Below, one piece after another: positions 3,872 to 50,792 of a stretch of 64,000 bases of DNA (positions are counted from its first letter, which is position 1; every line of letters starts with the position of its first letter). Under the pieces are notes generated by a model. The model was not told the origin of the DNA. It searched no databases and saw only the letters and a list, made by a program, of their open reading frames with translations. Both the position numbers and the translations under genes were made by a program. The stretch comes from an uncultured Candidatus Saccharibacteria bacterium. Its GTDB lineage: Bacteria > Patescibacteriota > Minisyncoccia > Phycocordibacterales > Phycocordibacteraceae. The stretch spans positions 72,286-136,285 of the forward strand of contig CAYOCH010000001.1 in the NCBI GenBank assembly GCA_964402535.1, read 5' to 3'.

Positions 3872-4265
3872 GAAAGTGCTCTTATTCTATCACAAAATGA
3901 GCCTGCGCGACAGCATCTCTACGCGCGAAATCCGGCTCGCTATCCCCTCTTAAATCTTGCGCATCAAGGACGCTCTGATAGGTTAATGAACAGACGTTCC
4001 TAAGGTGTATGCGCAATGCAGCAAGCGCGGGGACGTCTGCTCCCTCAACGTGTCACTGCTAGGAGGTGTCTATGATACCCACGCAATGCAAACCCGTCGC
4101 TGCCATGTCGACTGCACCGCCGACTAGCGCGCTCGCGAAGAAAGCGGCCATCGCCTCGGTACCGAACGGCGACGGCTAGCTCGGCGAGCAGAGGCCGCAA
4201 AAAACTGCGTAGAGACTAATAACAATAAAATTGTTCAATAAGAATAATCCCGATCAGGGACCCTC

Positions 4266-4300
4266 GGGCCGCCACATCGCGCGGCCCTTTCGTTTTTCTT
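4266..4300 (+). terminator. candidate intrinsic terminator hairpin in long noncoding region
   Basis: gggccgc-cacatc-gcggccc stem followed by tttcgtttttctt. Confidence 0.35.
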
Positions 4301-4690
4301 ATCCCCACCGGGCCGCTACAGCCGTTGACGGATTCTCGGGCAGTGCTACTGTCGCCAACAGGCGCTCGTTGACCTGGCTGAATCGTCTCGTGCGCCATGC
4401 CACGCCTTCACAGGGCACATCGACTGCAGCTCACCGCTGCACAACTCGAATAGGAGGATGTTGATGAACAGATATTGGAATCATCGCATAACCAAGTTTG
4501 CTGTCGTATCGCGGCCCGGGCAGAGAGCGTAGCCAGCGACTCGCTCACTGAGGGACATAGGCCGCACTGCAGCATACTGTAGTTCCCTACTTCCATATCG
4601 ATTGGGAGAGCACCGACGCAGTAAACGATTCAAGCAAGACACTTTCCTCGGCGACACCTGCCGCCACACGGGTTCGCTAACGGCGTACCC

Positions 4691-4725
4691 AAAGGCCACT
4701 CTTCGGAGTGGCCTTTCACTTTTCC
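4691..4725 (+). terminator. candidate intrinsic terminator hairpin in long noncoding region
   Basis: aaaggccactc-ttcg-gagtggccttt stem followed by cacttttcc. Confidence 0.35.
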
Positions 4726-4831
4726 GCTGTTTCTGGTACAGTCTATTTGTTGCGTGCGGAGCAGTAGGAAAGGAGTAACCCTCTCGCCTTGCGGCGGGAC
4801 ACCCTTTTTGAACATCGGCACTGCTATATAA

Positions 4832-5950
4832 ATGTCTGAAGAGAAGAAAGTCGCTGCGCCTGCAGTGACCATCCATCTGACCGAGGGCCACCCGATGGCC
4901 GAGTTCGTCGACTCGATCCCGACGCCGCCCTCCTCGGGCGATCTCGTCGAGGGTTCGATCATCGCGATGAACCGCGGCCGCGTCTATGTCGACCTGCCGC
5001 CGTTCGGCACCGGCCTCATCTACGGCCGCGAGTACCTGAACGCCGCCGACGTGCTGCGCAAGGCGAACCCGGGCGACACGATCAGCGCCAAGGTCGTCGA
5101 CGCCGCCGGCCGCGACGGCTATATCGAGCTCTCGCTTAAGGAGGCTCGCCAGGCCGCGATCTGGGGCGAGGCCGAGGCCGCTATCCTCTCGGAGACGACC
5201 TACACGCTCACCGTCGACGAGGCGAACAAGGGCGGTCTCATCCTCTCGTGGCAAGGCATCCAGGGCTTCCTCCCTGCCTCGCAGCTCTCGAAGGAGCACT
5301 ACCCGCGCGTGCCGGAGGGCGATAAGGAGAAGATCCTCGGCGAGCTCATGCAGCTTGTCGGCCATCCGCTTTCAGTGCGCATCATCACCGCCGACGCAAA
5401 GGAGGGCAAGCTTATCTTCTCTGAGCGCACCGGCAACGAAGCCGAAGAGAAGGCATCGCTCATCGACAAGTACCAGGTCGGCGACACGGCCGAAGGCGAA
5501 GTGACTGGCATCGTGGACTTCGGCGTGTTCGTCAAACTCGAGCCGGGTCTCGAGGGCCTCGTGCACATCAGCGAGCTCGACTGGGGCCTCGTCGAAGATC
5601 CGCATGCGCTCTTCAAGGTCGGCGACAAGGTGCGCGTCAAGGTGATCGAGATCAAGGACGGCAAGATCTCCCTCTCGGTCAAGGCGCTCAAGGAGAACCC
5701 GTGGCACACCGCGGCCGACCGCTACACCAAGGGCCAGCAGGTGCCGGGCGTGATCATCAAGTACAACAAGCATGGCGCGCTCGCCTCGATCGAAGAGGGT
5801 GTGGCCGGCCTCGTGCACGTCTCAGAGTTCGAGTCGCCGCAGGCGCTTCGCGAGACGCTCGAGCTCGGCAAGACGTATCCGTTCGTCATCTCGCTCTTCG
5901 AGCCCAAGGATCAGCGCATGACGCTCACCTTCGCGGGCAAGGCGAAGTAG
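4832..5950 (+). CDS. rpsA: 30S ribosomal protein S1-like (multiple S1 domains)
   Basis: 372 aa with repeated S1 OB-fold signatures (GxVxGxVxxIxDFGVFVKL, GLVHISEL). Confidence 0.8.
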   Translation: MSEEKKVAAPAVTIHLTEGHPMAEFVDSIPTPPSSGDLVEGSIIAMNRGRVYVDLPPFGTGLIYGREYLNAADVLRKANPGDTISAKVVDAAGRDGYIELSLKEARQAAIWGEAEAAILSETTYTLTVDEANKGGLILSWQGIQGFLPASQLSKEHYPRVPEGDKEKILGELMQLVGHPLSVRIITADAKEGKLIFSERTGNEAEEKASLIDKYQVGDTAEGEVTGIVDFGVFVKLEPGLEGLVHISELDWGLVEDPHALFKVGDKVRVKVIEIKDGKISLSVKALKENPWHTAADRYTKGQQVPGVIIKYNKHGALASIEEGVAGLVHVSEFESPQALRETLELGKTYPFVISLFEPKDQRMTLTFAGKAK

Positions 5951-5993
5951 CATCGGGAATTAAGAATCTCGAATTAGAAATTTGGAAGAAACA

Positions 5994-6028
5994 CCCGCGG
6001 CGCCTCCGGCGCCGCGGGTGTTTTGACA
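5994..6028 (+). terminator. intrinsic terminator after rpsA
   Basis: acacccgcggcgcc-tcc-ggcgccgcgggtgt stem plus tttt; shares its core with the ftsZ terminator. Confidence 0.7.
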
Positions 6029-6053
6029 CATTGTGCAAACGTAGTATAGTGTA
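6026..6053 (+). promoter_or_regulatory. sigma70-like promoter (TTGACA-N16-TATAGT) for the 86-aa ORF
   Basis: consensus -35 TTGACA and -10 TATAGT with 16-nt spacer; GAGGAG RBS 6 nt before the ATG at 6086. Confidence 0.5.
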
Positions 6054-6085
6054 GATACGTTCTTTCCCGACAGAGAGGAGTTCAG

Positions 6086-6346
6086 ATGCCGAATATCGAG
6101 ATTCACGGCTGCGGTCATGACGAGGCAAAGAAGAGCGAGAAGAAGATCCTCAAGCACTGCAACTGGCCGGACCTGGTCGTCACGATCGTCACCGACGTCG
6201 TCCGGGATCGCAAAGGCAAGCTACAGCCGTTCCTGCGCGTCTACCAGGACGCGAGCAACATCGCTTGGCCGTTCCTTGAGCGACTCAACTTACACCTCGA
6301 TATCGAGGTCATCGCGGTTCACAAGTTCATCCCCAAGTCACCGTAG
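6086..6346 (+). CDS. hypothetical small protein (86 aa), in low-GC islet
   Basis: strong promoter and RBS upstream; low GC; no recognisable family. Confidence 0.5.
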   Translation: MPNIEIHGCGHDEAKKSEKKILKHCNWPDLVVTIVTDVVRDRKGKLQPFLRVYQDASNIAWPFLERLNLHLDIEVIAVHKFIPKSP

Positions 6347-6435
6347 TTCTGCCCCACTCACAGCCCGCCACGCGCGGGCTGTCGCTTTTCTGAGCTAATA
6401 AACAATGCCGACGCTTGGTCGACATTAGTTTTTTC

Positions 6436-6636
6436 TTACCCAACTTTTACTATCGGTCTCTGACTTCGATATTCATCCATTACCCTTCGCTGTTCTTCGT
6501 TCGCTTCTCTCAGGACTTGGCGAATGACCTTGGCTTTATCCCCAGATGATTTGCTGAAGAAATCAGAAAAATCGCTCCCGCGCCGAGCGTTATTGCCTCC
6601 AAAAGCCGCAAAAAAACCCTTAATTAGCTTCGTCAT
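6436..6636 (-). CDS. hypothetical 66-aa protein, translationally coupled downstream of the zeta-toxin-family gene
   Basis: ATGA start/stop overlap with the upstream gene; charged, coiled-coil-like. Confidence 0.4.
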   Translation of the reverse strand: MTKLIKGFFAAFGGNNARRGSDFSDFFSKSSGDKAKVIRQVLREANEEQRRVMDEYRSQRPIVKVG

Positions 6637-7337
6637 ACGAGTATCCTTTCTAAGTCTTCTAAAGCGTAACTGCCGTTCACGATGCGGTCAAGCTCATCAG
6701 CTGGGACATTCAGTTTGAACTCTTCTCTTCCTGTCTCATAGTCCTTGATGAGGATATTCAATTCTACGTCCTGCCCGAACTGTTCTTTCACCTGTCGAAC
6801 ATTATCGCGCGACGCAAAATAAGCCTTTATGAAGATATCTTTCGACACATGTCTCGTTTCTCGAGCTTCACGTACCTTGGTAAATTCCCAAGCCAAGACT
6901 GGATTCTGATAAATGAACCAGAGTTCAATCGTTCGATTGTGTGCCAGTGAGCGTTGTATATTCCCGGCAGCGTCACCATAAGCAAAAGTGCCGTCTAATA
7001 TGCAGTTCACGTCTCGATCCAAGGCATGATCATACAGAAAGTTGACACCCTTGTTCGCGGCCCTTTGGAAAAGGTGGGCGTTGCTTCCAGCGTACCCGGG
7101 ACACAGACTTCGAATTTCGTCTGCATCGATTCGTATCGGTACGTCTCTAAATTTCTTGATGAGCCCTTTCGAGACTTCCGTCTTGCCCGCACCTGGCGAG
7201 CCTGCCATAAATAGCGAGACCGGGTTTGCAACCGGATGACAACTGGCCGCCGGACAAAATTGTTCAATAATTACTGCCCTGTGATTCTTTATGAACTCTA
7301 TTGCCTCTCTTTCAATGCGCGTCTCCTCATCAGTCAT
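6633..7337 (-). CDS. zeta-toxin family P-loop kinase (PF06414-like)
   Basis: Walker A FMAGSPGAGKTEV followed by IRIDADEIR, resembling the zeta/PezT catalytic Asp region; low GC. Confidence 0.6.
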   Translation of the reverse strand: MTDEETRIEREAIEFIKNHRAVIIEQFCPAASCHPVANPVSLFMAGSPGAGKTEVSKGLIKKFRDVPIRIDADEIRSLCPGYAGSNAHLFQRAANKGVNFLYDHALDRDVNCILDGTFAYGDAAGNIQRSLAHNRTIELWFIYQNPVLAWEFTKVREARETRHVSKDIFIKAYFASRDNVRQVKEQFGQDVELNILIKDYETGREEFKLNVPADELDRIVNGSYALEDLERILV

Positions 7338-16163: not shown

Positions 16164-17180
16164 TCAAGTGTTCTGCTTGATCGGGGCGAGCTGGGTCAAG
16201 AACGCATCGACAGAGTGCTCCCACGAATACCGCTCCGCCTTCGCGCGGCAATCGTCGCGCGAGAGGTCGAGGCATGAGAGTGCGCACGCGCGCAAGTCAT
16301 CGCCAAGATAGCCGTCCTTCCCTGCCGTGATGCTGTCCTTGGGGCCCATCACGTCGTGCGCGGCGACTGGGATGCCGCAGGCGAGGGCCTCGATCACGAC
16401 GAGCCCGAAGGTCTCGGTCCTTGAGGGGAAGACGAACGCGTCGGCGAGCGAGAGCCAGTCGACGAGCTCTTGGCCGCGCTTGTAGCCGACGAAGCGGTGC
16501 GTCGCGCCGTACTGCCGCTCCAACCGTGCGCGATCGGGACCGTCGCCGATCACGAGCTTGGTACCCGGGAGGTCGAGCTTCAAGAATTCTTCCGGGCTCT
16601 TCTCCGGCGCGAGCCGGCTGAAGTAGACAAACACCGGCTGCGGCACATCAGTCAAGGACGGTGTCGGGTTGCGCTTGAACAGCTCGAGATCGACCCCGAG
16701 CGGCACAACCGCGAGATTGCGATATCCCATCGACTCGAGCGTTCGCTTCAGCGTTTCGGTCGAGACGAATGTGCACGCGGCGGCGGCGTGGAACCGTCGC
16801 AAGTAGTAGAGCACCGGCGCGAGGAGGCCGCGTAGCCTGATATCGACATAGAGCTGCAGGTGCGTGTGGTACCAGGTCGTGAAGGGTATGCCGCGCCGTT
16901 TACAGACGCCCCGCGCCGCAAAGCCGAGCGGCCCCTCGGTCATGAGATGTATCGCGTCGGGGCGGAACTCGTCGATCACGCGAGCGATGCGGCGGCGCGA
17001 GGAGAGCGCGAGACGGATCTCGGGGTACATCGGGAGCGGGACGGTGCGAAACTGGGAGGGCTCGATCACTTTCACCTCATAGCCGCGCGCGCGGAGCCGT
17101 TCGAGATACGCGTCTTGTACTCGCACGACGCCGTTCACTTGGGGCGCCCACGCATCGGTCACGAACAGTATCTTCTTCAT
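16164..17180 (-). CDS. glycosyltransferase family 4
   Basis: MKKILFVTDAWAPQVNGVV...EALACGIPV GT-B/GT4 pattern; start trimmed to the ATG that overlaps (ATGA) the stop of the upstream DedA gene. Confidence 0.75.
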   Translation of the reverse strand: MKKILFVTDAWAPQVNGVVRVQDAYLERLRARGYEVKVIEPSQFRTVPLPMYPEIRLALSSRRRIARVIDEFRPDAIHLMTEGPLGFAARGVCKRRGIPFTTWYHTHLQLYVDIRLRGLLAPVLYYLRRFHAAAACTFVSTETLKRTLESMGYRNLAVVPLGVDLELFKRNPTPSLTDVPQPVFVYFSRLAPEKSPEEFLKLDLPGTKLVIGDGPDRARLERQYGATHRFVGYKRGQELVDWLSLADAFVFPSRTETFGLVVIEALACGIPVAAHDVMGPKDSITAGKDGYLGDDLRACALSCLDLSRDDCRAKAERYSWEHSVDAFLTQLAPIKQNT

Positions 17181-17812
17181 AGCCCGAGCTCTTTGTCCGG
17201 CGGCATCCGTTCGATGTCCGCGTCCTTCTTGAGGAACTTCTTGCGCATGTAGAAGGTGAAGACGTAGTAGCCGGTGATCGCGATCGCAGCGATCGCGATG
17301 ATGTACTGCACGTTCTCGATCACGCGCGTCGCCGTCCCGCCGAAGCTCGCGCCGAGATAATAGCCGGCGACTAAGAGCGTTCCATACTGGAGCACCGCCA
17401 CAACGCTTCCCCACCCGAAGAATTTCGTGAGCGGCATCTTGACCATGCCGGCGACCACGATGAAAGCCGAAGCGATACCGTACGAGAGCTTGCCGACAAG
17501 CATCGTGACGGCCGGCCGCCGCGCCCATAGGAGCCGCACCTCTTTGAGGTGGCCGGCGGTGATGCCGAGTTTCTTTAGCATCTTGGCGGCAAAGCGCGTC
17601 CGCCCGCCGAAGTAGCCCGTCGCGTAGTAGACGCCGTCGAGCCCGACATCGCGGACGAAGAACAAGATGGCCAGGATCCAGAACTCGAAGAGCCCGGCAG
17701 CCGCCATCGTGCCGGCGATGAATGCGACGACCGGACCCTCGAGAAGCGAGAGCGGAATGAGGATCCAGTAGCGGTAGACGAGGATAAGGTGCGTTAATGA
17801 ATCGACTGACAT
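17177..17812 (-). CDS. DedA/VTT-domain membrane protein
   Basis: 211 aa, SNARE-associated DedA-like hydrophobic profile. Confidence 0.7.
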   Translation of the reverse strand: MSVDSLTHLILVYRYWILIPLSLLEGPVVAFIAGTMAAAGLFEFWILAILFFVRDVGLDGVYYATGYFGGRTRFAAKMLKKLGITAGHLKEVRLLWARRPAVTMLVGKLSYGIASAFIVVAGMVKMPLTKFFGWGSVVAVLQYGTLLVAGYYLGASFGGTATRVIENVQYIIAIAAIAITGYYVFTFYMRKKFLKKDADIERMPPDKELGL

Positions 17813-17859
17813 CGGTGAAAGTATACTCCCTGGTCGGGAGCGGGCTATACTGATAGTGC

Positions 17860-19260
17860 ATGAAGGTTCATCATTCCGTCGACTGGCAGGGACTCTCGTT
17901 CGTCGGCAAGGCCTTGCTCGCGCTCATGGTCGTCTCGGGCGGCATCTACTTCAGCCAGCTCTACGCGTCGAGCTCGCGCGCTTCGGGAGAGCCGAACATG
18001 GTACTGATCCAACAACAAGCATCGATCGCACGCGGCGGATCAACGCTCGCACTATCGACGACTACATCGAAACACATCATTAACACGCTCACGATCGCCG
18101 ACGCCGTCCCCGCCTCCGGAAAATTCATCACGGCCGACCTCGTGAACAACGTGCTCACGCTCTACGAAGACGGTTCGGCGACCGCGAAATATCCGATCCT
18201 CGCCGCGGGCGCGCCGAGCTCGCCCTATGCCGCACCCGAGGGCGTCTACGCAATTCAGTCAAAGAATCCGGATCGTTTCTTCTCCGCCGGGCTCGTGCAT
18301 CAGAAGTGGAGCGTGCAGTTCGCCGGCAACTACTCTATCCATGGCACGCCCTATCGCGAGGACGGTGCCGCTGTTGATGCCGATTATAAGAACGACTCGA
18401 TCGAGGTGAGCACGAGCGACGCCGAGCGCGTCTTCGACTTTGCCGACAAGGGCACCAGCGTGTTCGTCTACGACCCGATCGGCCACGGCGCCTCATCGCT
18501 CGTGCTCGACACGGTGCCGCAGCCATCTGTCACTGCCGCCTCCTACCTTGTCGCAGACGTCGACACGGGCGACGTCTTTGCCGAGCGAGCAGCTCAATCA
18601 GTACAGCCGATCGGCTCGACAGCGACGCTCCTCACGGCGCTCGCCGCAGACGAGACCGTCCCCTTCGACACGAATCTCTCGGTGTTGAAGAGCGACCTCT
18701 CCCCCACCGTTCGCACCAAGACGCGAGAACGTCTCACGGCCGGACAACTCATATATCCGCTCCTTATGAACGGCAGCGCGGCTGCGGCAACAAGTCTCGC
18801 GGAAGCGTCGCAGAGCGACCTCATCAGCTGGATAAACGCGCTTGCCGGCTCGCTCGACATGCCGAAAACGCGCATCTCGGACCTTATCGGCACCTCGACG
18901 GCCTCGGTGACCACGGCAGATGACCTCTTTCATCTCGCGGCCTATCTCGCCGCCAACAAGACATTCATCCTGAGCATCGCCAAGGCGCCGCAAGCGAGCG
19001 TGCTCGCCGACAGCGGCACGACCTACCGATTCACGAACACGGTCGCAACCGGCAGTTCACTCGTCTCGCTCGTCTCGGTGCCATTGAACGGCACGCTCCG
19101 TCGCGCGGCCGTCATCGTGCTCGGTTCAGACAACGCCGCTATCGATGCGAATGCGCTCGGCAACTGGTACGCACAGTCGACTCGCCAGGGCGCCGAGATG
19201 GCCGCGACCGCGTGCGTCACCTGCACGCCGGCGCCGGCCTATCGCAAGATCCAGCTCTAA
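17860..19260 (+). CDS. secreted peptidoglycan-related protein: L,D-transpeptidase-like plus D-Ala-D-Ala carboxypeptidase (S11)-like domains, catalytic motifs apparently degenerate
   Basis: YSIHGTPY (YkuD-like) but no catalytic Cys; S11-like segment PIGSTATLLTA (SxxK becomes STAT), NGS in place of SGN, ATG in place of KTG. Confidence 0.5.
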   Translation: MKVHHSVDWQGLSFVGKALLALMVVSGGIYFSQLYASSSRASGEPNMVLIQQQASIARGGSTLALSTTTSKHIINTLTIADAVPASGKFITADLVNNVLTLYEDGSATAKYPILAAGAPSSPYAAPEGVYAIQSKNPDRFFSAGLVHQKWSVQFAGNYSIHGTPYREDGAAVDADYKNDSIEVSTSDAERVFDFADKGTSVFVYDPIGHGASSLVLDTVPQPSVTAASYLVADVDTGDVFAERAAQSVQPIGSTATLLTALAADETVPFDTNLSVLKSDLSPTVRTKTRERLTAGQLIYPLLMNGSAAAATSLAEASQSDLISWINALAGSLDMPKTRISDLIGTSTASVTTADDLFHLAAYLAANKTFILSIAKAPQASVLADSGTTYRFTNTVATGSSLVSLVSVPLNGTLRRAAVIVLGSDNAAIDANALGNWYAQSTRQGAEMAATACVTCTPAPAYRKIQL

Positions 19261-19263
19261 CTG

Positions 19264-19746
19264 CTAGTCAGAGGTGAACGAACGGCTCGTGAGGAGCGAA
19301 TAACCCTGATAGGCACTGTCGCGCACGCGGCGCGTATCGTAGTAGACGCCGATCGTATAACTCCCCGCGGGGATCGGGGTCGTGACCGTGTAGCTAAACC
19401 ACTGCCGATAGTCGGTGCTCACCTCGCCGCCGACGCCCGAGTCGCCCGATGCGACGACGCCCTTGATGGCTGCCGGATCATCCGGCTGCGCCGGTAATGC
19501 GGCATCGCCGGCCACGACGACGATCGTGAGATCGCCCGCATACATGTTCTCGAGCGTCCCGGAGATCGTCGGCGTCGCGGAGTCCGTGACGACGTCGACC
19601 GTCCCGCTCACTGTCCCGATCCCCGGCGGCGCGGACTTGGGCGCCGTCGCCGGCGCGATCGGCGACTTGATCACGCTGAAGAACCACGACCCGAGTACGG
19701 CCACGACGATGGCGATGACGGCGAGTACGACGATGTTCTTGCTCAT
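19264..19746 (-). CDS. hypothetical secreted/membrane-anchored protein
   Basis: 160 aa with N-terminal TM/signal segment. Confidence 0.45.
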   Translation of the reverse strand: MSKNIVVLAVIAIVVAVLGSWFFSVIKSPIAPATAPKSAPPGIGTVSGTVDVVTDSATPTISGTLENMYAGDLTIVVVAGDAALPAQPDDPAAIKGVVASGDSGVGGEVSTDYRQWFSYTVTTPIPAGSYTIGVYYDTRRVRDSAYQGYSLLTSRSFTSD

Positions 19747-19777
19747 GCCTTTGAATGATCTCTCCTATTATAACCTA

Positions 19778-19993
19778 GTGATGAAATTATACACTTTGCG
19801 CGAACCCACTTCGCACGCGCCGAGCGCGTGGTGACTCGGGACTAATGCGTACGCTCCGATCGCGCCTCGCCCGCGCTCGCGGACTCGCGCGGGCAAACCC
19901 AAAATTTCCTTGCATTTTCTCCTCGGCTCCTCCCCCGACCCCTCCGCCGAAAGGCGAAAAAGGATGGAAAGGAAATTTTTGGTTTGCGTCGCC
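19778..19993. repeat. IR1-L (~215 bp), perfect reverse complement of 22189-22403
   Basis: identical 70-80 aa spurious ORFs on opposite strands (19768-20010 minus and 22124-22408 plus); direct sequence comparison. Confidence 0.9.
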
Positions 19994-20197
19994 TTTTGAA
20001 AACTCCACAAGGGGCAACAAAGTATTCACATTGAAGCCCCTTGCTCCGTAATCAAAAGGCGACCCGAGGCGCAATACACAGCGGTCTGCGCTAGGGCGCA
20101 GTCAGTTTTGATATGTGCTTGGCCCACCCGCCCAGTCCGCGCACAACCAGCCCCGCCGTTTTAGGAAACATTATAAAACGGCGGGGCTGGCTCCCTA

Positions 20198-20548
20198 TCA
20201 GCCTGAATGAAAATCCGACTGTTTTTTATGTGCCCCCGTGTATTCTGGTAGCACTTTCTCAATTTTTCTTTTGTAAAACTTCCTTACAGAAACATCTTTC
20301 TGGAATAAAAAATGATCTTCCGTGAAAGTACCGTCTTTTTTCTTATACCTAAGGCCTATCAAAATGCAATCTTTCGCGCTGGTTGGTATTGAATATGTGA
20401 CATGGTCAAATACACCATCTTTTTGTCTCAATTTTATTCCATGTTTATTTAGAACTTTCAGAAAGATTTCTGCAGTTGGCTTTTCCAAGCTGCCACTGTA
20501 AATACTATCGGTGATATGTTTTATCTCACCATAAGAATCATCTTTCAT
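20198..20548 (-). CDS. hypothetical protein (island cargo, 116 aa)
   Basis: low-GC ORF, last gene of the minus-strand cargo operon. Confidence 0.45.
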   Translation of the reverse strand: MKDDSYGEIKHITDSIYSGSLEKPTAEIFLKVLNKHGIKLRQKDGVFDHVTYSIPTSAKDCILIGLRYKKKDGTFTEDHFLFQKDVSVRKFYKRKIEKVLPEYTGAHKKQSDFHSG

Positions 20549-20575
20549 AATTCTAAGCCAGACAATGACCGATCT

Positions 20576-20965
20576 TTAACTGACGGATTTTGAGGCTGTA
20601 TTACTTTCGTCTTTTTTTGAATCCCAAGGAAGTGTCTTAGAAAAAGCGATGAAATAAGCAATCACTGCCCACGCTGGTATAACAACATTCGGAAATGGAT
20701 CGTTGACCAGGTCAGCTCTCTTAGTAAGAACCGTCATTATAATAATGATTATTACGGCAATGAGCTCAAGAGTCTTTCTCAGTGTTGTTTCTTTCGCGAG
20801 ACCAAGTTTTCGCTTTTTAGCGGACATGTACGCAATTGAGCCAAGAACCATAAACCATCCCCCAACAAGTAAGCTGCCGTTGACTTGACCTGCTCCACCC
20901 AAAAGTGCGAAAAGCCCAAGCACTAAAGCCGCATAAGAACCCCAGAAATTTTTATAGTCTTTCAT
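20576..20965 (-). CDS. hypothetical membrane protein (island cargo, 129 aa, ~4 TM)
   Basis: hydrophobic profile; low GC. Confidence 0.45.
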   Translation of the reverse strand: MKDYKNFWGSYAALVLGLFALLGGAGQVNGSLLVGGWFMVLGSIAYMSAKKRKLGLAKETTLRKTLELIAVIIIIIMTVLTKRADLVNDPFPNVVIPAWAVIAYFIAFSKTLPWDSKKDESNTASKSVS

Positions 20966-20977
20966 ATATAAATTATT

Positions 20978-21889
20978 CTAAAAACAATTTATCGTTGCTA
21001 CTCCGCCTCCGGCAGACTGGACGGTGCAAGAAGTGGAGCGAGGAACCGCCACGGGTGCGGTAGACTGCGTGAGCGTGGAAGAATACATGTTGTAATCTGA
21101 GACAAACGATGCAGCAAATCCCTGGAATGCATTCAACACTGTGTAGGTATCGGTCGGTGTTTGGTAGTTTAGGAAATACGAAAGCGGTTGAGATTGTAAA
21201 TTTGCTAAATCTGACTGCGCCTTTTCAATGATTGACTTTGTAGGCGCTTGTTGATTCATGATGCGTGTGATTCGCAGATTCGTCAGATTTCGCAAAGCAA
21301 CCGCTACCTGACTGTTATTGTTTGCGAGCGCATTTAGCACACCATTCATGCTGTCTATATCAGACGTCTGAAGATTGTAGAGGTATGTATAGCTAGAAAT
21401 TATTTTGTTGAGGGTGCCGATAGCGTCATTTTTTACTAAAACAGCAGCGGACAAATCTTGTGTCTGGGTTTGTGTCTGATTTTGGACTGGCAGATTTTGG
21501 TTTTGCGCTTGTTGTGTTTTTGATTGGCAATATGCTTTCCCGCCATCCCCAGGACATACAAAATCACTTCCAGACGGACAGGAAGAATAGTAGGTGCCGT
21601 TACAAAGGGTAGAATTTTTTGGCACGGCGGCTTCTGTCTTCGTGGACACACTCTGGCCTTTGTTGGTCGGTACCGTTTGAGGAGAAATTTTTACATTTCC
21701 TGTCGTGCTAGTTGCAAGAGGCGAAACGTTATTTGGAGTGTTATTCGGAGTAAAGAAGGTTGACACCCGATTTGTAAAAGGAGAAAAGATATACCAAGAA
21801 AGCGGATTCCACCATGCTGCGAAAGCAACTTGTGGAATAACAAAGATCATTACAGCGCCGACTGCAAAAAGATTTTTATACCCTTTCAT
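20978..21889 (-). CDS. secreted S/T/N/Q-rich protein with Cys cluster (island cargo, 303 aa)
   Basis: signal peptide, CNGTYYSSCPSGSDFVCPGDGGKAYC cysteine cluster, QTQTQTQ low-complexity region. Confidence 0.5.
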   Translation of the reverse strand: MKGYKNLFAVGAVMIFVIPQVAFAAWWNPLSWYIFSPFTNRVSTFFTPNNTPNNVSPLATSTTGNVKISPQTVPTNKGQSVSTKTEAAVPKNSTLCNGTYYSSCPSGSDFVCPGDGGKAYCQSKTQQAQNQNLPVQNQTQTQTQDLSAAVLVKNDAIGTLNKIISSYTYLYNLQTSDIDSMNGVLNALANNNSQVAVALRNLTNLRITRIMNQQAPTKSIIEKAQSDLANLQSQPLSYFLNYQTPTDTYTVLNAFQGFAASFVSDYNMYSSTLTQSTAPVAVPRSTSCTVQSAGGGVATINCF

Positions 21890-21894
21890 GATTA

Positions 21895-22116
21895 TTATTT
21901 CAAAAAATAATTGATGTCTTTGTCGTAGAGCTTTGCGAATCGCTTGAGTTCCACGACATCGACCCTCTGCTGTCCCGATTCGACGTTCGAGATATGTGAC
22001 TGCGGCCGGCCAATCTTTTTGGCGACTTGCGTCTGGGTCAATCCGGCCTCAAGGCGAGCCGTCCGCAGTCTCTCGACAAAGACAGCATATTCCTTTGTTT
22101 GGATTGACTTCTTCAT
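21895..22116 (-). CDS. XRE-family helix-turn-helix transcriptional regulator
   Basis: LTQTQVAKKIGRPQSHISNVESGQQ HTH_3 pattern; first gene of the cargo operon. Confidence 0.7.
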   Translation of the reverse strand: MKKSIQTKEYAVFVERLRTARLEAGLTQTQVAKKIGRPQSHISNVESGQQRVDVVELKRFAKLYDKDINYFLK

Positions 22117-22188
22117 ATGGTAAATGGTCTATCTAAGAAGTCAATATCCAAAGTTTGGATATTCTCGTGCTAAGCTGAATAGGACCTC

Positions 22189-22403
22189 GGCGACGCAAAC
22201 CAAAAATTTCCTTTCCATCCTTTTTCGCCTTTCGGCGGAGGGGTCGGGGGAGGAGCCGAGGAGAAAATGCAAGGAAATTTTGGGTTTGCCCGCGCGAGTC
22301 CGCGAGCGCGGGCGAGGCGCGATCGGAGCGTACGCATTAGTCCCGAGTCACCACGCGCTCGGCGCGTGCGAAGTGGGTTCGCGCAAAGTGTATAATTTCA
22401 TCA
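22189..22403. repeat. IR1-R (~215 bp)
   Basis: reverse complement of 19778-19993. Confidence 0.9.
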
Positions 22404-22515
22404 CATAGTAAAACATCTGCCGGAGTGAGTGCGGCGGAGCCGCGCCGCGAAGCGGCGCGGGAAGGAGCGGCGGCGAATTGCGCCCTGCGGGCGCGGGCTA
22501 ATTCGGAGGGCGGGC
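22403..22515. repeat. IR2-L (~113 bp), reverse complement of 23993-24105
   Basis: direct sequence comparison; lies immediately upstream of the recombinase start. Confidence 0.9.
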
Positions 22516-22576
22516 AGGATGCAAGAAATGAAATCGGAAATGGTACTTGTCGGTTTTGAATCCAAAATCTATTTAT

Positions 22577-24166
22577 ATGTCGGCTAAACCAAAATATTTT
22601 CTCTACGCGCGCAAAAGCACCGAGGACGACGACAGGCAAGTGATGTCCATTGAGGCGCAACTTTTCGAGCTACGCGAGTATGCGCGCAGAGAAAATCTTG
22701 AAATTCTTGAGGAATTTCAAGAGTCGAAAAGCGCAAAGAGCCCGGGGCGGGATATTTTCGGCAGAATGATGATGCGCGTCGAGGGTATGCAGGGCGTCGG
22801 GATTTTAGCGTGGCATCCTGACCGATTGGCGAGAAATAGCATTGACGGCGGACGCATCATCTACGCCGTGGACACTTCGCGTATTGTCTCTTTGCGCTTT
22901 CCGACATTTTGGTTTGAGCCGACGCCGCAGGGGCTCTTTATGTTGCAAGTGGCGTTCGGCCAGTCGAAATATTACAGCGACAATCTCACACAGAACGTCG
23001 AACGAGGGTTCCGCCAAAAACTGCGCCGCGGCGAGTGGCTGACGCGCGCTCCCTTTGGCTATGTGAATAATCCGCGCACGCGGAATATCGAACCCGACCC
23101 CGTGAAGTCGCGGGTCGTGGTGCGCGCGTTCGAGGAGTACGCCAAAGGATTGCACACGCTGGTTTCGTTGGGGCAGTTTTTGGCGGAACACGGCGTTGTG
23201 ACCCGCGCCGGAACGCCACTTGGCAAAGCTTCCGTGGCGAGATTGCTTTCCAATCGCGCGTATCTCGGACTTACCAAACATCACGGCGAATTTTTCCCCG
23301 GAAGCTTTGCGCCAATTCTTTCTGCGCCACTGTTTGAAGCCGTCCAAAAGAAATTGCATGAGCGAGCGCGTCCCCGTCACAGCCGCGTCCGCCATGACTT
23401 TCCATTTACGGGTCTGTTTCGGTGCGGCGAGTGCGGTGCAATGATTACCGCACAGTGGACTACAGGTCGTCATGGCGGACGCTACCGCTACTACCGCTGT
23501 ACCAAAAAGAATGGCACGTGCGGTCAAGGATATTTGCAGGAGGACGCGCTCGTCATGCAGACAAAGGAACGGCTTCAAGCAGTGTCGCTCCCCGACGACT
23601 GGGCAGAGTACATGCTCGGCAAGGCCGAGGAATGGGACAAGGCGGACAAGCAGTCGTCGGGGAGCCATGCCGAGCGACTGAAATCCGAACTAAAGGAAAT
23701 CGAGCGAAAGCTTGATGCGCTCGTTGATTTGCACCTGAACGGCGATATTGAGCGCGCGAGGTATCTGGCGAAAAAGGACGCACTGATGCGCCTCAAGCTC
23801 TCGCTCGATACAAAATTATCAGCCGCCCGACACGGCAGAAAGAATTGGGTCGAACCCCTGCGGCAGTGGATTTTGGATTCAAAACGCGCGGGGTTTCTGG
23901 CTTCCAGTACAAACTACGCGGAAATCCGCGAGTTTGTCCGTTCCTTCGGAACGAACCCCGCGATGCGCGACAAGACCATTTCGATTTCATTTTGCCCGCC
24001 CTCCGAATTAGCCCGCGCCCGCAGGGCGCAATTCGCCGCCGCTCCTTCCCGCGCCGCTTCGCGGCGCGGCTCCGCCGCACTCACTCCGGCAGATGTTTTA
24101 CTATGTGACCCCACGGGGAATCGAACCCCGATTTACGCCGTGAAAGGGCGCTGTCCTAACCGTTAG
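22577..24166 (+). CDS. large serine recombinase (resolvase/invertase N-domain plus recombinase and zinc-ribbon domains)
   Basis: YARKSTEDDD...SIEAQ catalytic Ser region, CGECGAMITAQW...YRCTKKNGTCGQ zinc ribbon; ORF C-terminus reads through IR2-R into the tRNA-Glu gene, so the true C-terminus is uncertain. Confidence 0.85.
   Translation: MSAKPKYFLYARKSTEDDDRQVMSIEAQLFELREYARRENLEILEEFQESKSAKSPGRDIFGRMMMRVEGMQGVGILAWHPDRLARNSIDGGRIIYAVDTSRIVSLRFPTFWFEPTPQGLFMLQVAFGQSKYYSDNLTQNVERGFRQKLRRGEWLTRAPFGYVNNPRTRNIEPDPVKSRVVVRAFEEYAKGLHTLVSLGQFLAEHGVVTRAGTPLGKASVARLLSNRAYLGLTKHHGEFFPGSFAPILSAPLFEAVQKKLHERARPRHSRVRHDFPFTGLFRCGECGAMITAQWTTGRHGGRYRYYRCTKKNGTCGQGYLQEDALVMQTKERLQAVSLPDDWAEYMLGKAEEWDKADKQSSGSHAERLKSELKEIERKLDALVDLHLNGDIERARYLAKKDALMRLKLSLDTKLSAARHGRKNWVEPLRQWILDSKRAGFLASSTNYAEIREFVRSFGTNPAMRDKTISISFCPPSELARARRAQFAAAPSRAASRRGSAALTPADVLLCDPTGNRTPIYAVKGRCPNR
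23993..24105. repeat. IR2-R (~113 bp)
   Basis: reverse complement of 22403-22515; ends exactly at the tRNA-Glu 3' terminus. Confidence 0.9.
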
Positions 24167-24177
24167 ACGATAGGGCC
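24106..24177 (-). tRNA. tRNA-Glu (anticodon TTC)
   Basis: cloverleaf by eye: acceptor GGCCCTA/TGGGGTC (two G-U pairs), anticodon loop CTTTCAC, T-arm CGGGGTTCGATTCCCCG; CCA not encoded. Confidence 0.8.
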
Positions 24178-24232
24178 TCACTACACGCGAATCCTAGCAT
24201 TTTCGGCCTCAAATGCTAGAATCTCGGCACAC

Positions 24233-24320
<88 letters not shown>

Positions 24321-24434
24321 ATCAGATTTTTCCACAGATGACGAAATAATGAATTGTGATAAGGTGTAGAGACAAAAGGACCAGAGATGGCCGCTTTTGT
24401 TTTTTGTTCTTTCACCAATCAGTGTACGGGAGTA

Positions 24435-24611
24435 GACATGCTGGACAATATCGCAGTTAACAACCTTGCGCGGCCGCTTCAACAAGAGGTGGAGACCGCA
24501 CAAGCTGCAGCAGCAGAAGCCGCGCGTCGTGCGCACGACCCGCGGTATAGCCACGAGCCGTTCGGCTGGGCTCGCGTCATGCTCGAAGAAGGCCTGACGC
24601 CCCGTCCATAA
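24435..24611 (+). CDS. hypothetical small protein (58 aa)
   Basis: GGGAG RBS before ATG 24435; hairpin plus T-rich tract downstream; no family match. Confidence 0.3.
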   Translation, partial: DMLDNIAVNNLARPLQQEVETAQAAAAEAARRAHDPRYSHEPFGWARVMLEEGLTPRP

Positions 24612-24702
24612 TCGGATTGGATCACGAAAGCGCATCCCTCGCGGGGTGCGCTTTCCTTATCGTTATTCCTGCGGCATGAAGATTGTGGTATAGTCGCACC
24701 AC

Positions 24703-24775
24703 GCGCGGTTAGCTCAGTTGGTAGAGCACTTCCTTGACGTGGATGGGGTCATAGGTTCGAATCCTATACCGCGCA
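24703..24775 (+). tRNA. tRNA-Val (anticodon GAC)
   Basis: GCGCGGT/ACCGCGC acceptor, anticodon loop TTGACGT, closely resembles E. coli valV. Confidence 0.8.
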
Positions 24776-24778
24776 CCC

Positions 24779-25549
24779 ATGGGTCCGAAGCGCCACAGCC
24801 CCAAGCAGGGCAAAGTGTATATATACGGCAAGCATGCGCTCATAGAGGCGCTCATGAACGCGCCTCAGGTGGTGCGCAAGGTCTTTCTCGCGTCGACCGT
24901 CCGTGACCGTGACCTGCTCTCACTCATCGAGAAGCACGCGACCCCCGTCTCTCCGCTCTCGACGGGACGCGGCAAAGAGATCGTCGGCAAGGACACGGCG
25001 CACCAGGGCGTCATCGCGACGATGGATCCCGCTGCCCTTCTCCTCTCGCTTGATGACTTCATCGCGAAGCTTGACCTGTCCAAGAATCCGGCCATCGCCG
25101 TACTCGGCGAGGTGCAGGATCCGCACAACGTCGGCGCGATCATCCGCTCAGCAGCCGCCTTCGGCCTCGCGGGCGTGCTCATCCCCGAGCACCACCAGGC
25201 CGGCATCACGGGCGCGGTCGTGAAGACCTCTGCCGGGATGGCCTTCCGCGTGCCGCTCGTCTCGATCGGTAATGTGAACGCGACCCTCGCCGCGCTCAAG
25301 AAGAAAGGCTTCTGGGTCTACGGCCTTGCGATGGCGGGCACCGCGCAGCTCGGCACGGACGTCTTCAACGCTCCGGTCGCATTCGTGGTCGGCAACGAAG
25401 GCTCCGGTATCCGCGAGAAGACGCTCGAGGCCTGCGACGTCACGCTCTCGATCCCGATGCACCCGCGCACCGAGTCGCTCAATGCTGCGGTCTCTGCTGC
25501 GGTCGTCTTTTACGAATGGTCGAAGAAGCACCCTGAATTCTTGGTATGA
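24779..25549 (+). CDS. TrmH/SpoU-family RNA 2'-O-methyltransferase (RlmB-like)
   Basis: VYGKHALIEAL N-terminus and SpoU methylase core (GEVQDPHNVGAIIRSAAAFG, FVVGNEGSGI). Confidence 0.8.
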   Translation: MGPKRHSPKQGKVYIYGKHALIEALMNAPQVVRKVFLASTVRDRDLLSLIEKHATPVSPLSTGRGKEIVGKDTAHQGVIATMDPAALLLSLDDFIAKLDLSKNPAIAVLGEVQDPHNVGAIIRSAAAFGLAGVLIPEHHQAGITGAVVKTSAGMAFRVPLVSIGNVNATLAALKKKGFWVYGLAMAGTAQLGTDVFNAPVAFVVGNEGSGIREKTLEACDVTLSIPMHPRTESLNAAVSAAVVFYEWSKKHPEFLV

Positions 25550-26427
25550 ACCTTTCGACTTTGCTCAAGGTAAAACTCGACCAGCACCTCACAGCAGAAT
25601 CGTGGGCGGATTACGAACTCATCGACTCGGGTGAGAACATGAAGCTCGAGCGCTTCGGCTCGGTCGTCGTCGCACGTCCAGAGACGCAGGCGTTGTGGAA
25701 GAAGGGTCAGCCGGAGTTGTGGAGCAGTGCCCACGCCGTCTTCGCCTTCCGCGACAAGAAGGGATCGTGGGACATGCTAAAGAGCGCCCCAGAGTCGTGG
25801 CCGGTCACCTGGCAGAGCGCGACATGCTCCGCGCGCCTCACCACCTTCAAGCACACGGGCATCTTCCCCGAGCAAGCGCCGAACTGGGAGTGGCTCGCGC
25901 GGGTCGTGAAGCCCGAGATGCAGATGCTGAACCTGTTCGGCTACACCGGTATGGCGACCGTCGTCGCCGCGAAGGCCGGCGCGCACGTGACGCATGTCGA
26001 TGCCTCTAAGCAGTCGCTCGACTGGGCGCACGAGAATGCGCGCCTCTCGGGTGTGGGCGAAGAGTCGATCCGTTGGATCCTCGATGACGCGCTCGCATTT
26101 GCGAAGCGCGAGGCGCGCCGCGGTGCGCAATACGACGGCATCATCCTCGACCCTCCGGCCTTCGGCCGCGGCGCCAAGGGCGAGGTGTGGAAGATCGAAG
26201 AGGATCTCCCTGCCCTCCTCGACACGCTCAAGCCGCTCCTCGCTGAAAGCGCCGGGTCGTTCTTCCTCATAAACGGCTACGCCGCCGGCTACTCGCCGCG
26301 CTCGTTTGCACAGGCGGTCGAGAGCACCTTTGGTAGCGTACACGGCGAAGCGGGAGAACTTTTCATCAAAGAATCTGCAACCGACCGTGTCATCCCCGCA
26401 GGCATCTACGTCCGCTTTGTGCGGTAA
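25546..26427 (+). CDS. class I SAM-dependent methyltransferase (RlmI/YccW-like core)
   Basis: LNLFGYTGMATVVAA...ILDPPAFGRG motifs. Confidence 0.6.
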   Translation: MNLSTLLKVKLDQHLTAESWADYELIDSGENMKLERFGSVVVARPETQALWKKGQPELWSSAHAVFAFRDKKGSWDMLKSAPESWPVTWQSATCSARLTTFKHTGIFPEQAPNWEWLARVVKPEMQMLNLFGYTGMATVVAAKAGAHVTHVDASKQSLDWAHENARLSGVGEESIRWILDDALAFAKREARRGAQYDGIILDPPAFGRGAKGEVWKIEEDLPALLDTLKPLLAESAGSFFLINGYAAGYSPRSFAQAVESTFGSVHGEAGELFIKESATDRVIPAGIYVRFVR

Positions 26428-50716: not shown

Positions 50717-50719
50717 GTG

Positions 50720-50792
50720 TGCGCCCACCACGACTCGAACGTGGAACCGCCGAGGTATAAGCTCGGTGCTCTAACCATTGAGCTATGGGCGC
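50720..50792 (-). tRNA. tRNA-Ile (anticodon TAT)
   Basis: GCGCCCA/TGGGCGC acceptor, anticodon stem CCGAG/CTCGG with loop CTTATAC. Confidence 0.65.

Follow-up and report, generated by a model that had tools for sequence, protein, structure and literature searches.

The window analysed here, a stretch of 64,000 nucleotides from an uncultured Candidatus Saccharibacteria bacterium (GenBank assembly GCA_964402535.1, contig CAYOCH010000001.1, positions 72,286 to 136,285 of the forward strand), contains a 4.33 kb island (window positions 19778-24108) that carries the gene for a large serine recombinase (LSR) and whose right edge abuts nucleotides 71-74 of a tRNA-Glu(UUC) gene (Table 1). The tRNA-Glu is intact (Rfam tRNA model at 24106-24177, 60.9 bits), and beyond it ARAGORN places a tRNA-Ser(cga) and a tRNA-Val(gac), both on the plus strand. 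An earlier reading of the same DNA, made from the letters alone (hereafter the sequence-only reading), had proposed a foreign LSR island integrated at the 3' end of tRNA-Glu, with host sequence resuming directly outside, and this proposal is supported by the present analysis. The same applies to its four minus-strand genes, found as open reading frames (ORFs) at 20198-22116, and to its recombinase of approximately 530 aa, which corresponds to an ORF of 529 aa with Resolvase, Recombinase and Zn_ribbon_recom domains.

The drop in G+C content that had been reported for the island is real, but it is not the uniform value of about 40-52% that was then given: in 400-nt windows, 36-47% is restricted to approximately 20.0-22.2 kb, while values of 53-59% are found at 22.0-24.2 kb and of 58-66% in the flanks. 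By segment, the G+C content is 0.43 for the cargo (2.2 kb), 0.57 for the recombinase segment and 0.62 for the left flank, and a foreign composition at the tRNA-Glu site is displayed by the cargo segment only.

Table 1. Features of the island and its tRNA target, in window coordinates.
Feature	Position	Strand	Remarks
S1 core GTGA, putative attL crossover, host DNA/arm A junction	19778..19781	+	GTGA common to S2 and S3
Arm A, outer inverted-repeat arm with the 'a' half-site (GTGA TGAAATTATACACTTTGCGCGAAC...)	19778..19993	+	complementary to 22189-22404
X module, conserved, non-coding, two hairpins, past the 3' end of the cargo operon	19994..20190	.	
116-aa protein	20198..20548	-	no Pfam, NCBIfam or PADLOC match
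129-aa hydrophobic protein, probably membrane	20576..20965	-	sub-threshold DUF6609 match only
303-aa protein, signal-peptide-like hydrophobic N-terminus (by eye)	20978..21889	-	no family match
XRE-type helix-turn-helix regulator, 73 aa	21895..22116	-	HTH_31, HTH_3; first gene of the operon
Arm A', inverted copy of A	22189..22404	+	100% complementary to 19778-19993
S2 core TCAC, centre of the intact inverted attP-like site	22401..22404	.	reverse complement is B'/GTGA/A
Arm B, inverted copy of the 3' end of the recombinase ORF	22401..22524	+	complementary to 23985-24108
LSR gene, 529 aa	22577..24166	+	ORF passes B', the core and 58 nt of antisense tRNA-Glu
Arm B', 'b' half-site with GC-rich hairpin, encodes the variable tail of ~40 aa of the recombinase	23985..24108	+	
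S3 core GTGA, putative attR crossover, overlaps tRNA-Glu nucleotides 71-74	24105..24108	+	
tRNA-Glu(UUC), intact, integration target	24105-24177	-	ARAGORN

Two pairs of long inverted repeats are found on the island, of which A/A' (216 nt, 100% complementary) brackets the cargo genes and B/B' (124 nt, 98% complementary) brackets the recombinase gene. Repeats of such length and identity cannot be attributed to chance. On the B side the similarity continues weakly, with indels, to about 22570, including 22553-22569 versus 23869-23885, and arm A contains an internal hairpin of its own (I6: 19893-19911 / 19969-19987, 19-nt stem). Among known RNAs, only the two tRNAs score above the Rfam gathering thresholds, and no match to the arm-A hairpin was obtained.

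The arms meet the host DNA, each other and the tRNA at three junctions, S1, S2 and S3, to which only the sequence GTGA is common (4-7 nt in relatives). At S1 the host sequence passes into arm A as ...ataaccta-GTGA-tgaaattatacac (read further, ...ataaccta/GTGA/tgaaatt...); at S2, read as its reverse complement, the end of B' passes into A as ...gttttactat-GTGA-tgaaattatacac; and at S3 the end of B' passes into the tRNA as ...gttttactat-GTGA-ccccacgggg. The reverse complement of 22371-22434 consists of the last 30 nt of B', GTGA and the first 30 nt of A, and the whole of S2 (22189-22524, approximately 340 bp) is located between the XRE regulator gene and the recombinase gene. Judged from these sequences, S1 (host/A) is the putative attL, S3 (B'/tRNA) the putative attR and S2 (inverted B'/A) an attP-like site, with the fourth combination, host/tRNA, as the predicted empty attB. 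A very short common core and no long duplication are what a serine recombinase, with its 2-bp crossover, leaves, and the combination of host/A, inverted B'/A and B'/tRNA around a 4-nt core is the one predicted for an attP x attB event. Because S2 repeats the joined element ends in inverted orientation, the cargo comes to lie within the 216-nt repeats and the recombinase gene within the 124-nt repeats.

The boundaries of the sequence-only reading were exact on both sides, position 19778 being the first base of both the 216-nt repeat and the shared GTGA core, and B' with its GTGA core ending at 24108 at the tRNA-Glu 3' end. The duplicated tRNA 3' segment that was to be looked for at the distal end amounts to nothing beyond 4 nt (GTGA, 19778-19781), and the label "classic architecture" does not fit an island with an intact attP copy in inverted orientation and two such pairs of long repeats. 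The host/A junction recurs unchanged in Logan unitigs of two other sequencing runs, which end 30 nt into A, as expected at k=31 where A branches to two left neighbours. The predicted attB, searched as an exact match of 30 nt, was not found in the JGI metagenomes; both independent Logan contigs bearing the left flank were occupied, and the other look-ups with flanking proteins gave short, uninformative contigs.

The recombinase gene starts at ATG 22577 (529 aa) or, alternatively, at TTG 22547 (539 aa); neither exact protein sequence is on record in the contig index, and no convincing sigma-70 promoter could be placed for it. The protein comprises a Resolvase domain (PF00239, residues 8-154, full profile, E=4e-20), a Recombinase domain (PF07508, residues 175-263) and a Zn_ribbon_recom domain (PF13408, residues 276-328), the latter two above their curated cut-offs. 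Residues ~340-430 are rich in charged, heptad-like sequence (read by eye), which may correspond to the coiled-coil motif that is inserted in the zinc-ribbon domain of LSRs and controls their directionality. Its Y-A-R-K-S-T motif, which contains the nucleophilic serine, aligns in register with Y-L-R-R-S-R of SprA/YokA, the only protein in the PDB that aligns (E=5e-8, partial, N-terminal half). The models for named subfamilies remain below cut-off (CcrB 83 bits versus 900; XisF 64 bits versus 375), and identity does not exceed 29% even for the best phage or plasmid LSRs. By its domain architecture the enzyme is assigned to the LSRs, and it falls outside the named subfamilies (CcrB, XisF, SprA).

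No stop codon of this ORF precedes the core, and the recombinase reads into the antisense strand of the tRNA. Its conserved domain ends in ...ISFCPPSE, where B' starts, and two forms of the tail beyond it are distinguished, ...LLCDEIIHFARTHFARAERVVTRD and ...LLCDPTGNRTPIYAVKGRCPNR. In the window the protein ends in the tRNA-antisense form (...LLCD-PTGNRTPIYAVKGRCPNR); read across the B'/A junction, the same ORF would end ...LLCD-EIIHFARTHFARAERVVTRD. Upstream of the start codon, the 3' end of the gene is repeated in inverted, degenerate form and with an internal deletion (ILDSK...[deletion]...TIKISF-LAF-RPPSEF). An antisense ORF of 107 aa (22337-22660, minus strand), which overlaps the recombinase start and crosses B and the core into A', was considered as a gene and rejected: it repeats the recombinase C-terminus in degenerate form, mostly lacks a start codon in relatives, and is probably not a gene.

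The XRE regulator gene is divergent from the recombinase gene, with a promoter-like site at 22144-22117. The 303-aa cargo protein is a near-orphan, for which only itself and three partial matches were found among 5.8 billion proteins. Searches with Pfam, NCBIfam and PADLOC revealed no recognisable excisionase, replication, conjugation or packaging gene in the element of approximately 4 kb, and no phage structural, replication or lysis genes in the cargo (PHROGs not searched). The "prophage remnant" that had been offered as an alternative description is thereby not supported: the cargo is without phage-type domains, no relative of the island is found in IMG/VR, and phage and plasmid LSRs are as distant as stated above. 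The X module carries the hairpins I3 (19988-20063) and I12 (20147-20190, perfect, with a 17-bp stem). A Logan unitig with the cargo (L005, from SRR5161795) ends at 20134, inside the X module and beside the 20147-20190 hairpin, a break which suggests that other elements in this sample share the X module with different cargo.

The family to which the island belongs was surveyed by a one-genome-per-species scan, which gave 571 confirmed matches; 80 loci were fetched, and individual loci are designated below by L numbers. More than 6400 homologs of the recombinase were found at E<=1e-20, the best 120 of which are 64-92% identical, and all named sources among these 120 are Patescibacteria (Paceibacteria, Magasanik-, Taylor-, Yonath-, Zambryski-, Nomura- and Adlerbacteria). 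Inverted repeats of 115-131 nt flank the recombinase gene in nearly all of the 80 loci, and in 51 of the 55 analysable ones the distal arm extends to the 3' end of an opposite-strand tRNA, with a 4-nt overlap between arm and tRNA in 44 of these 51. An intact inverted B'/A site was present in all related loci examined, and the logic of the three sites is also found in L006, L011, L017, L033, L036, L060 and L080.

The consensus of the Glu-type B'/A site is gAAGTtTC..ttTGTGA, followed directly by tgaaAT..TA.CCtttGCgCGAACttaTTTc, and 52-55 related loci conserve that of the 'a' half-site; no conservation is seen in the host-side half of attL among the loci compared. A CGAAC motif occupies +18-22 of the tRNA half-site and +24-28 of the A half-site, 6 bp farther from the core. 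A similar offset separates the attP and attB half-sites of LSRs, which we take as a lead and not as a test. The targets comprise Glu-CTC/TTC (31 loci), Ala, Arg, Ser, Gly, Ile, Pro, Leu and Val, with at least 10 tRNA types in total, and the core varies with the target (GTGA, GTGG, GTGC, GCGG or GTCC).

A few further observations concern the targets. In L067 (1832-1905) ARAGORN assigns the anticodon TTA, reading UAA, to the target tRNA, which is perhaps suppressor-like or else miscalled. The window itself has a tRNA-Ile(TAT) at 50719-50792, a rare type that is also targeted by the related elements L072 and L086. In L081 (9460-10900) four partial tRNA-Glu 3' ends (GTGACCCTA...), at approximately 9466, 10490, 10660 and 10880, precede the real tRNA downstream of the recombinase gene, a series suggestive of repeated integration or replacement at this site. 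The host of L006 is related to that of the window (TrmH 70% and penicillin-binding protein 45% identical, compared with window 17177-26427); there, the block of element, tRNA-Glu and tRNA-Ser is reversed between the penicillin-binding protein/membrane-protein genes and the TrmH/methyltransferase genes, and the attL side abuts TrmH and not, as in the window, a 160-aa gene.

A/A' arms around 2-6 kb of cargo are present in about half of the loci with enough left flank. The clear cases are L006, L011, L017, L022, L033, L036, L060 and L080, with arms of 164-253 nt that are 98-100% identical; L083 has a 61-nt A arm beside a gap of Ns, and L060 (CP060229.1), a record titled as a chromosome, contains both pairs of repeats. 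XRE homologs are located beside S2 in L017, L033, L036, L045, L060, L064, L071, L080, L083 and others, and the regulator adjoins S2 in every locus that shows a regulator gene together with both arms. The inner part of arm A (19893-19987; copy at 22195-22289) forms a conserved nested hairpin, GCAAACCCAAAATTTCCTT...CCTCGGC-[loop]-GCCGA...AAGGAAATTTTTGGTTTGC, which is also observed in L027 (9930-10040), L020, L086 and L012; its loop is a G run (GGAGGGGTTTGGGGAGG-like) or a C run depending on the locus, and the module therefore occurs in both orientations. Homology to the X module was found on the attL side in L006 (corresponding to window 20112-20196).

Several lines of evidence point to recent movement of these elements. 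Within clusters of recombinases that are at least 90% identical, the tRNA-derived tails differ between members (for example ...PIYAVKGRCPNR, ...PLPSLRSLCPNR, ...RITGLKSRCPNR and ...LITALRRRCPNR), so that the same element lineage adjoins different tRNA-Glu genes in different hosts. The occurrence of such closely related recombinases at many tRNA-Glu sequences indirectly supports recent mobility. The cargo is variable: L089, with a recombinase 92% identical to that of the window, carries unrelated cargo (TPR, zinc-ribbon and trypsin-like proteins) in the opposite orientation, and other relatives encode DNA methylases (one fused to a LexA-like domain), an AriA/OLD/GajA-like ATPase, a Panacea-domain antitoxin, a cytidine deaminase, a PLD-family protein and a beta-helix/PKD surface protein. 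The XRE regulator beside S2 is the only recurrent cargo gene. The G+C content of the cargo is below that of the host in the window and in 6 of 9 related loci, with the recombinase segment closer to the host value.

The arms themselves are far more similar within a locus than between loci. Over their outer 110 nt, B and B' of the same locus display a median identity of 99.1% (at least 99% in 41 of 62 loci), compared with a median of 81.8% for the most similar B' of any other locus, and identity within the locus exceeds that between loci in 58 of the 62. The identity tract has a sharp, conserved inner edge, marked on the B side by a conserved insertion of ~9 nt. From the degenerate copy of the gene's 3' end beyond this edge it would follow that S2 originated when the attP-proximal end, with part of the gene, was duplicated in inverted orientation. 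The outer part of the S2 arms appears to be actively homogenised, and because the arms are homogenised also in loci without attL, an in-situ process such as gene conversion is indicated.

Forms in which the element ends are joined, or in which segments are turned round, are present at low frequency. The A-type tail (...C-D-L-I-x-x-F-A-R-T-x-F..., read across B'/A) is found in approximately 6-8% of the homologous proteins, including P0121/L091, a k141 contig that is ~93% identical to the window over the recombinase region and belongs to the window's own lineage; A-type and tRNA-type tails coexist within lineages. In 52 of 52 loci the reading frame stays open across S2 and encodes a conserved motif, in many loci with a stop within a few codons, and the entropy by codon position is 0.67 / 0.56 / 0.94, highest at the third. 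This pattern is compatible with selection on a translated tail; the invariant CGAAC lies inside it, so that constraint on DNA and on protein are inseparable. In two loci, L037 (k127) and L086, the order is reversed, tRNA/B being followed by a recombinase gene that reads away. In L089 the X module (homology to window 19994-20078 and 20107-20154) is on the S2 side and the cargo is transcribed toward S2, the opposite of the window, which means that the segment is inverted there. In L086 (1186-3005), an arm of tRNA-Ile(tat) type with core GTCC stands on the tRNA side, and A is joined to an arm of Glu type whose core is GTGA. GT is all that these cores have in common, a hint as to the crossover dinucleotide and to recombination among lineages.

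With moderate confidence we regard the island as a small, recently mobile, site-specific integrative element, not a prophage, which its LSR inserted at the 3' end of tRNA-Glu by a conservative crossover at GTGA. As recombination by this class of enzymes is conservative, excision by attL x attR would yield a circle of 4327 bp with two inverted, attP-bearing repeats of ~340 bp, which would separate the 2.2-kb cargo from a 1.46-kb recombinase segment. Integration would normally proceed via the attP copy located where the recombinase ORF ends; it would leave the regulator, S2 and recombinase-promoter region intact, and would replace the last ~20 codons of the recombinase, exchanging ...C-D-(3 hydrophobic)-x-F-A-R-T-x-F... 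for the tRNA-antisense tail. Since the chromosomal S2 is inverted with respect to both attR and attL, both segments could occasionally invert, and gene conversion between arms would keep these identical. Candidate roles for S2 are, in order of preference, a second attP and operator of the two-repeat circle, a site for self-inversion versus attR that restores the attP tail, and a single-strand splint.

A number of observations weigh against such an integrative element. A second copy of A is absent from about 11 loci whose left flank extends over 7.5 kb, attL is often missing, and the B/B' arms are still 97-100% identical in loci without the attL arm. In L014, A' measures only ~75 nt and is followed by three cargo genes and then by the host dcw genes mraZ-rsmH-ftsL-ftsI-murF (named from N-terminal sequences). 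With two equivalent attP copies, both orientations of integration would be expected to be common, whereas the recombinase gene points at the tRNA in 51 of 55 loci and only L037 and L086 are reversed. A search of the JGI metagenomes for the reverse form (tRNA-Glu 3' end followed by the recombinase start on the same strand) gave 0 matches, at a sensitivity of ~10% of known loci, and is a weak sign that this form is rare. No closed circle with matching arms was found among the contigs with an A-type tail (L086, L087, L088, L091 and L092); L088 and L092 have the order A'/B-recombinase-B'/A with arms of mixed type (of two lineages in L092), and could represent either tandem arrays or chimeras. For excision, canonical LSRs depend on a directionality factor, and the island contains no recognisable candidate, the 73-aa XRE protein beside S2 being the only conserved accessory gene.

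Loci without a second copy of A, such as L014, look like decayed copies, and together with orphan modules they show that the modules can decay or separate. Two such orphans, A-cargo-A' with an XRE gene and no recombinase, were observed in L027 (9838-12423) and L012 (approximately 4090-7102), one located ~40 nt past a tRNA-Ser(gct), the other at no tRNA and without a GTGA core. In L014 two tandem repeats of ~100 nt (5680-5840) directly follow murF at the presumed left edge, where no attL-type site is present. No locus with two close recombinase copies, as in a tandem array, was found, and the left end of L088 is explained by the assembler re-entering the A repeat.

Other explanations of the layout were considered. 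The recombinase gene could lie on its own invertible segment, like hin, with S2 and attR acting as an inverted attP x attB-like pair; a flip would toggle the tail between the tRNA-antisense and ...FARTxF forms and make the recombinase co-directional with the regulator and the cargo, the arms being the repeats of this segment. We judge such a self-inverting switch unlikely, although several observations favour it: S2 with its 'a' half-site and the B/B' arms are universal, even without the A/attL arm, the lack of conservation in the host-side half of attB means that B'/tRNA could still resemble a target, and the recombinases of L037 and L086 that read away from the tRNA, the coexistence of both tail types in the same lineages and the inverted cargo segment of L089 would all find a place in it. 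It is opposed by the bias in orientation (51 of 55 loci versus 2 reversed), by the absence of matches to the reverse form in the JGI metagenomes and by the general knowledge that canonical LSRs do not recombine attP with attR; moreover, site-specific inversion alone does not homogenise arms, and it leaves the horizontal spread to many tRNA-Glu genes unexplained. A stage of single-stranded DNA, for example during competence uptake or on the lagging-strand template, is in our view improbable. Here A/A' and B/B' would pair and the A'/B strand would splint the ends, building a duplex attP or allowing precise circularisation or excision without a directionality factor, while mismatch correction would keep the arms identical. 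Serine recombinases cut four strands of two duplexes, and a complete reaction at an attP borne on a stem would leave a broken chromosome capped by a hairpin; no HUH or rolling-circle gene and no direct evidence of a single-stranded form were found, and the identical B arms of elements without A point to an in-situ process. The idea draws on the length and near-perfection of both arm pairs, which abut the cores exactly, on their strong concerted evolution, on the small size of an element without a recognisable excisionase, replication, conjugation or packaging gene, and on known precedents for sites folded from a single strand (CTXphi attP(+) and integron attC).

The orphan A-cargo-A' modules (L027 9838-12423; L012 from ~4090) and the B-recombinase-B' modules without long A arms (for example L014) could also be taken as two independent units with terminal inverted repeats that were inserted side by side, the recombinase acting as a transposase on the repeat ends. 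This we hold to be decidedly improbable, as the three junctions correspond to one attP x attB event with one core, the 'a' half-site accompanies B for every type of target tRNA, insertion is always at one and the same tRNA position, no target-site duplication is seen, and no serine recombinase is generally known to move elements with terminal inverted repeats. That the layout is an assembly artefact, a chimeric or fold-back contig, is scarcely credible. Metagenome assemblies of related repeats can be chimeric, and L020 (a scaffold with an NN join) and the mixed arms of L092 and L088 are possible cases; against this, the same layout is found in ~70 independent assemblies from different studies and assemblers and in the chromosome-titled CP060229.1, the junctions are reproduced in Logan unitigs of two other runs with a separate unitig carrying the cargo, and the arm boundaries match the tRNA end to the base.

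The layout of the integrative element is unlike that of the LSR elements known to us in its internal inverted attP, its long homogenised arms on both modules and its ORF across the crossover, and literature searches returned no description of such a layout for serine recombinases or integrases in Patescibacteria/CPR (candidate phyla radiation). As a tentative and rather doubtful extension, the island might represent a new class of serine-recombinase elements in which direction and regulation reside in the layout of the DNA and not in an excisionase, the enzyme being a tail-dependent integrase, invertase and possibly excisionase. The spare inverted attP would then let the enzyme flip its own gene and regain the attP tail, or would give the circle two attP sites. 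Spare inverted attP, crossover-spanning ORF and homogenised arms together raise the question of how the direction of a serine integrase is controlled without a known partner protein. To our knowledge the routes of gene transfer in Patescibacteria are essentially unknown, with few recognised plasmids or conjugative systems, and a 4-kb element that moves among the tRNA genes of different species, bringing along genes for defence, restriction-modification and surface proteins, would rank among the main carriers of their accessory genome. As attP is kept inside the integrated element, attP and attB can both be read from a single genome, which would provide dozens of natural recombinase/attP/attB triplets for at least 10 tRNA targets, a type of resource sought for genome engineering with serine integrases.

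Compared with the LSR elements and prophages of phiC31, Bxb1, A118, SPbeta SprA, SCCmec CcrAB and Anabaena XisF, the island has the same three-domain enzyme, conservative integration, a very short common core and asymmetric attP/attB half-sites; it differs in its very low sequence similarity and in targeting a tRNA 3' end, and none of these elements is known to us to keep an intact attP copy in inverted orientation, to flank its recombinase gene with long inverted repeats or to have an ORF spanning the crossover. The Prochlorococcus tycheposons are likewise small, tRNA-adjacent islands with a site-specific recombinase and variable accessory or defence cargo, but they belong to another recombinase lineage and another host phylum, and no internal inverted attP or arm pairs are known to us from them. 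With the Hin/Gin/Cin segments the island shares a serine recombinase gene bounded by inverted sites, and the rare opposite orientation in L037 and L086; these invertases, however, measure ~190 aa with a C-terminal helix-turn-helix, act on 26-bp sites with an enhancer and Fis, and are neither integrative nor located at a tRNA, whereas the island enzyme has 529 aa and LSR domains, and its inverted sites are a hybrid attP and an attR. The yeast 2-micron plasmid (FLP/FRT) resembles the predicted circle, with two long inverted target-bearing repeats, two unique segments and a recombinase gene beside a repeat; FLP is a tyrosine recombinase, and the plasmid is autonomous and uses inversion to amplify its copy number, in contrast to the island, which is integrated, has no replication gene and apparently inverts rarely. 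Finally, a crossover inside the recombinase ORF, so that integration rewrites the C-terminus, is also found in intP/attP of the myxophage Mx8 and in SSV1-type integrases; these are tyrosine recombinases without a spare internal attP, and where the SSV1 gene is split by integration, that of the island would exchange its last ~20 codons.

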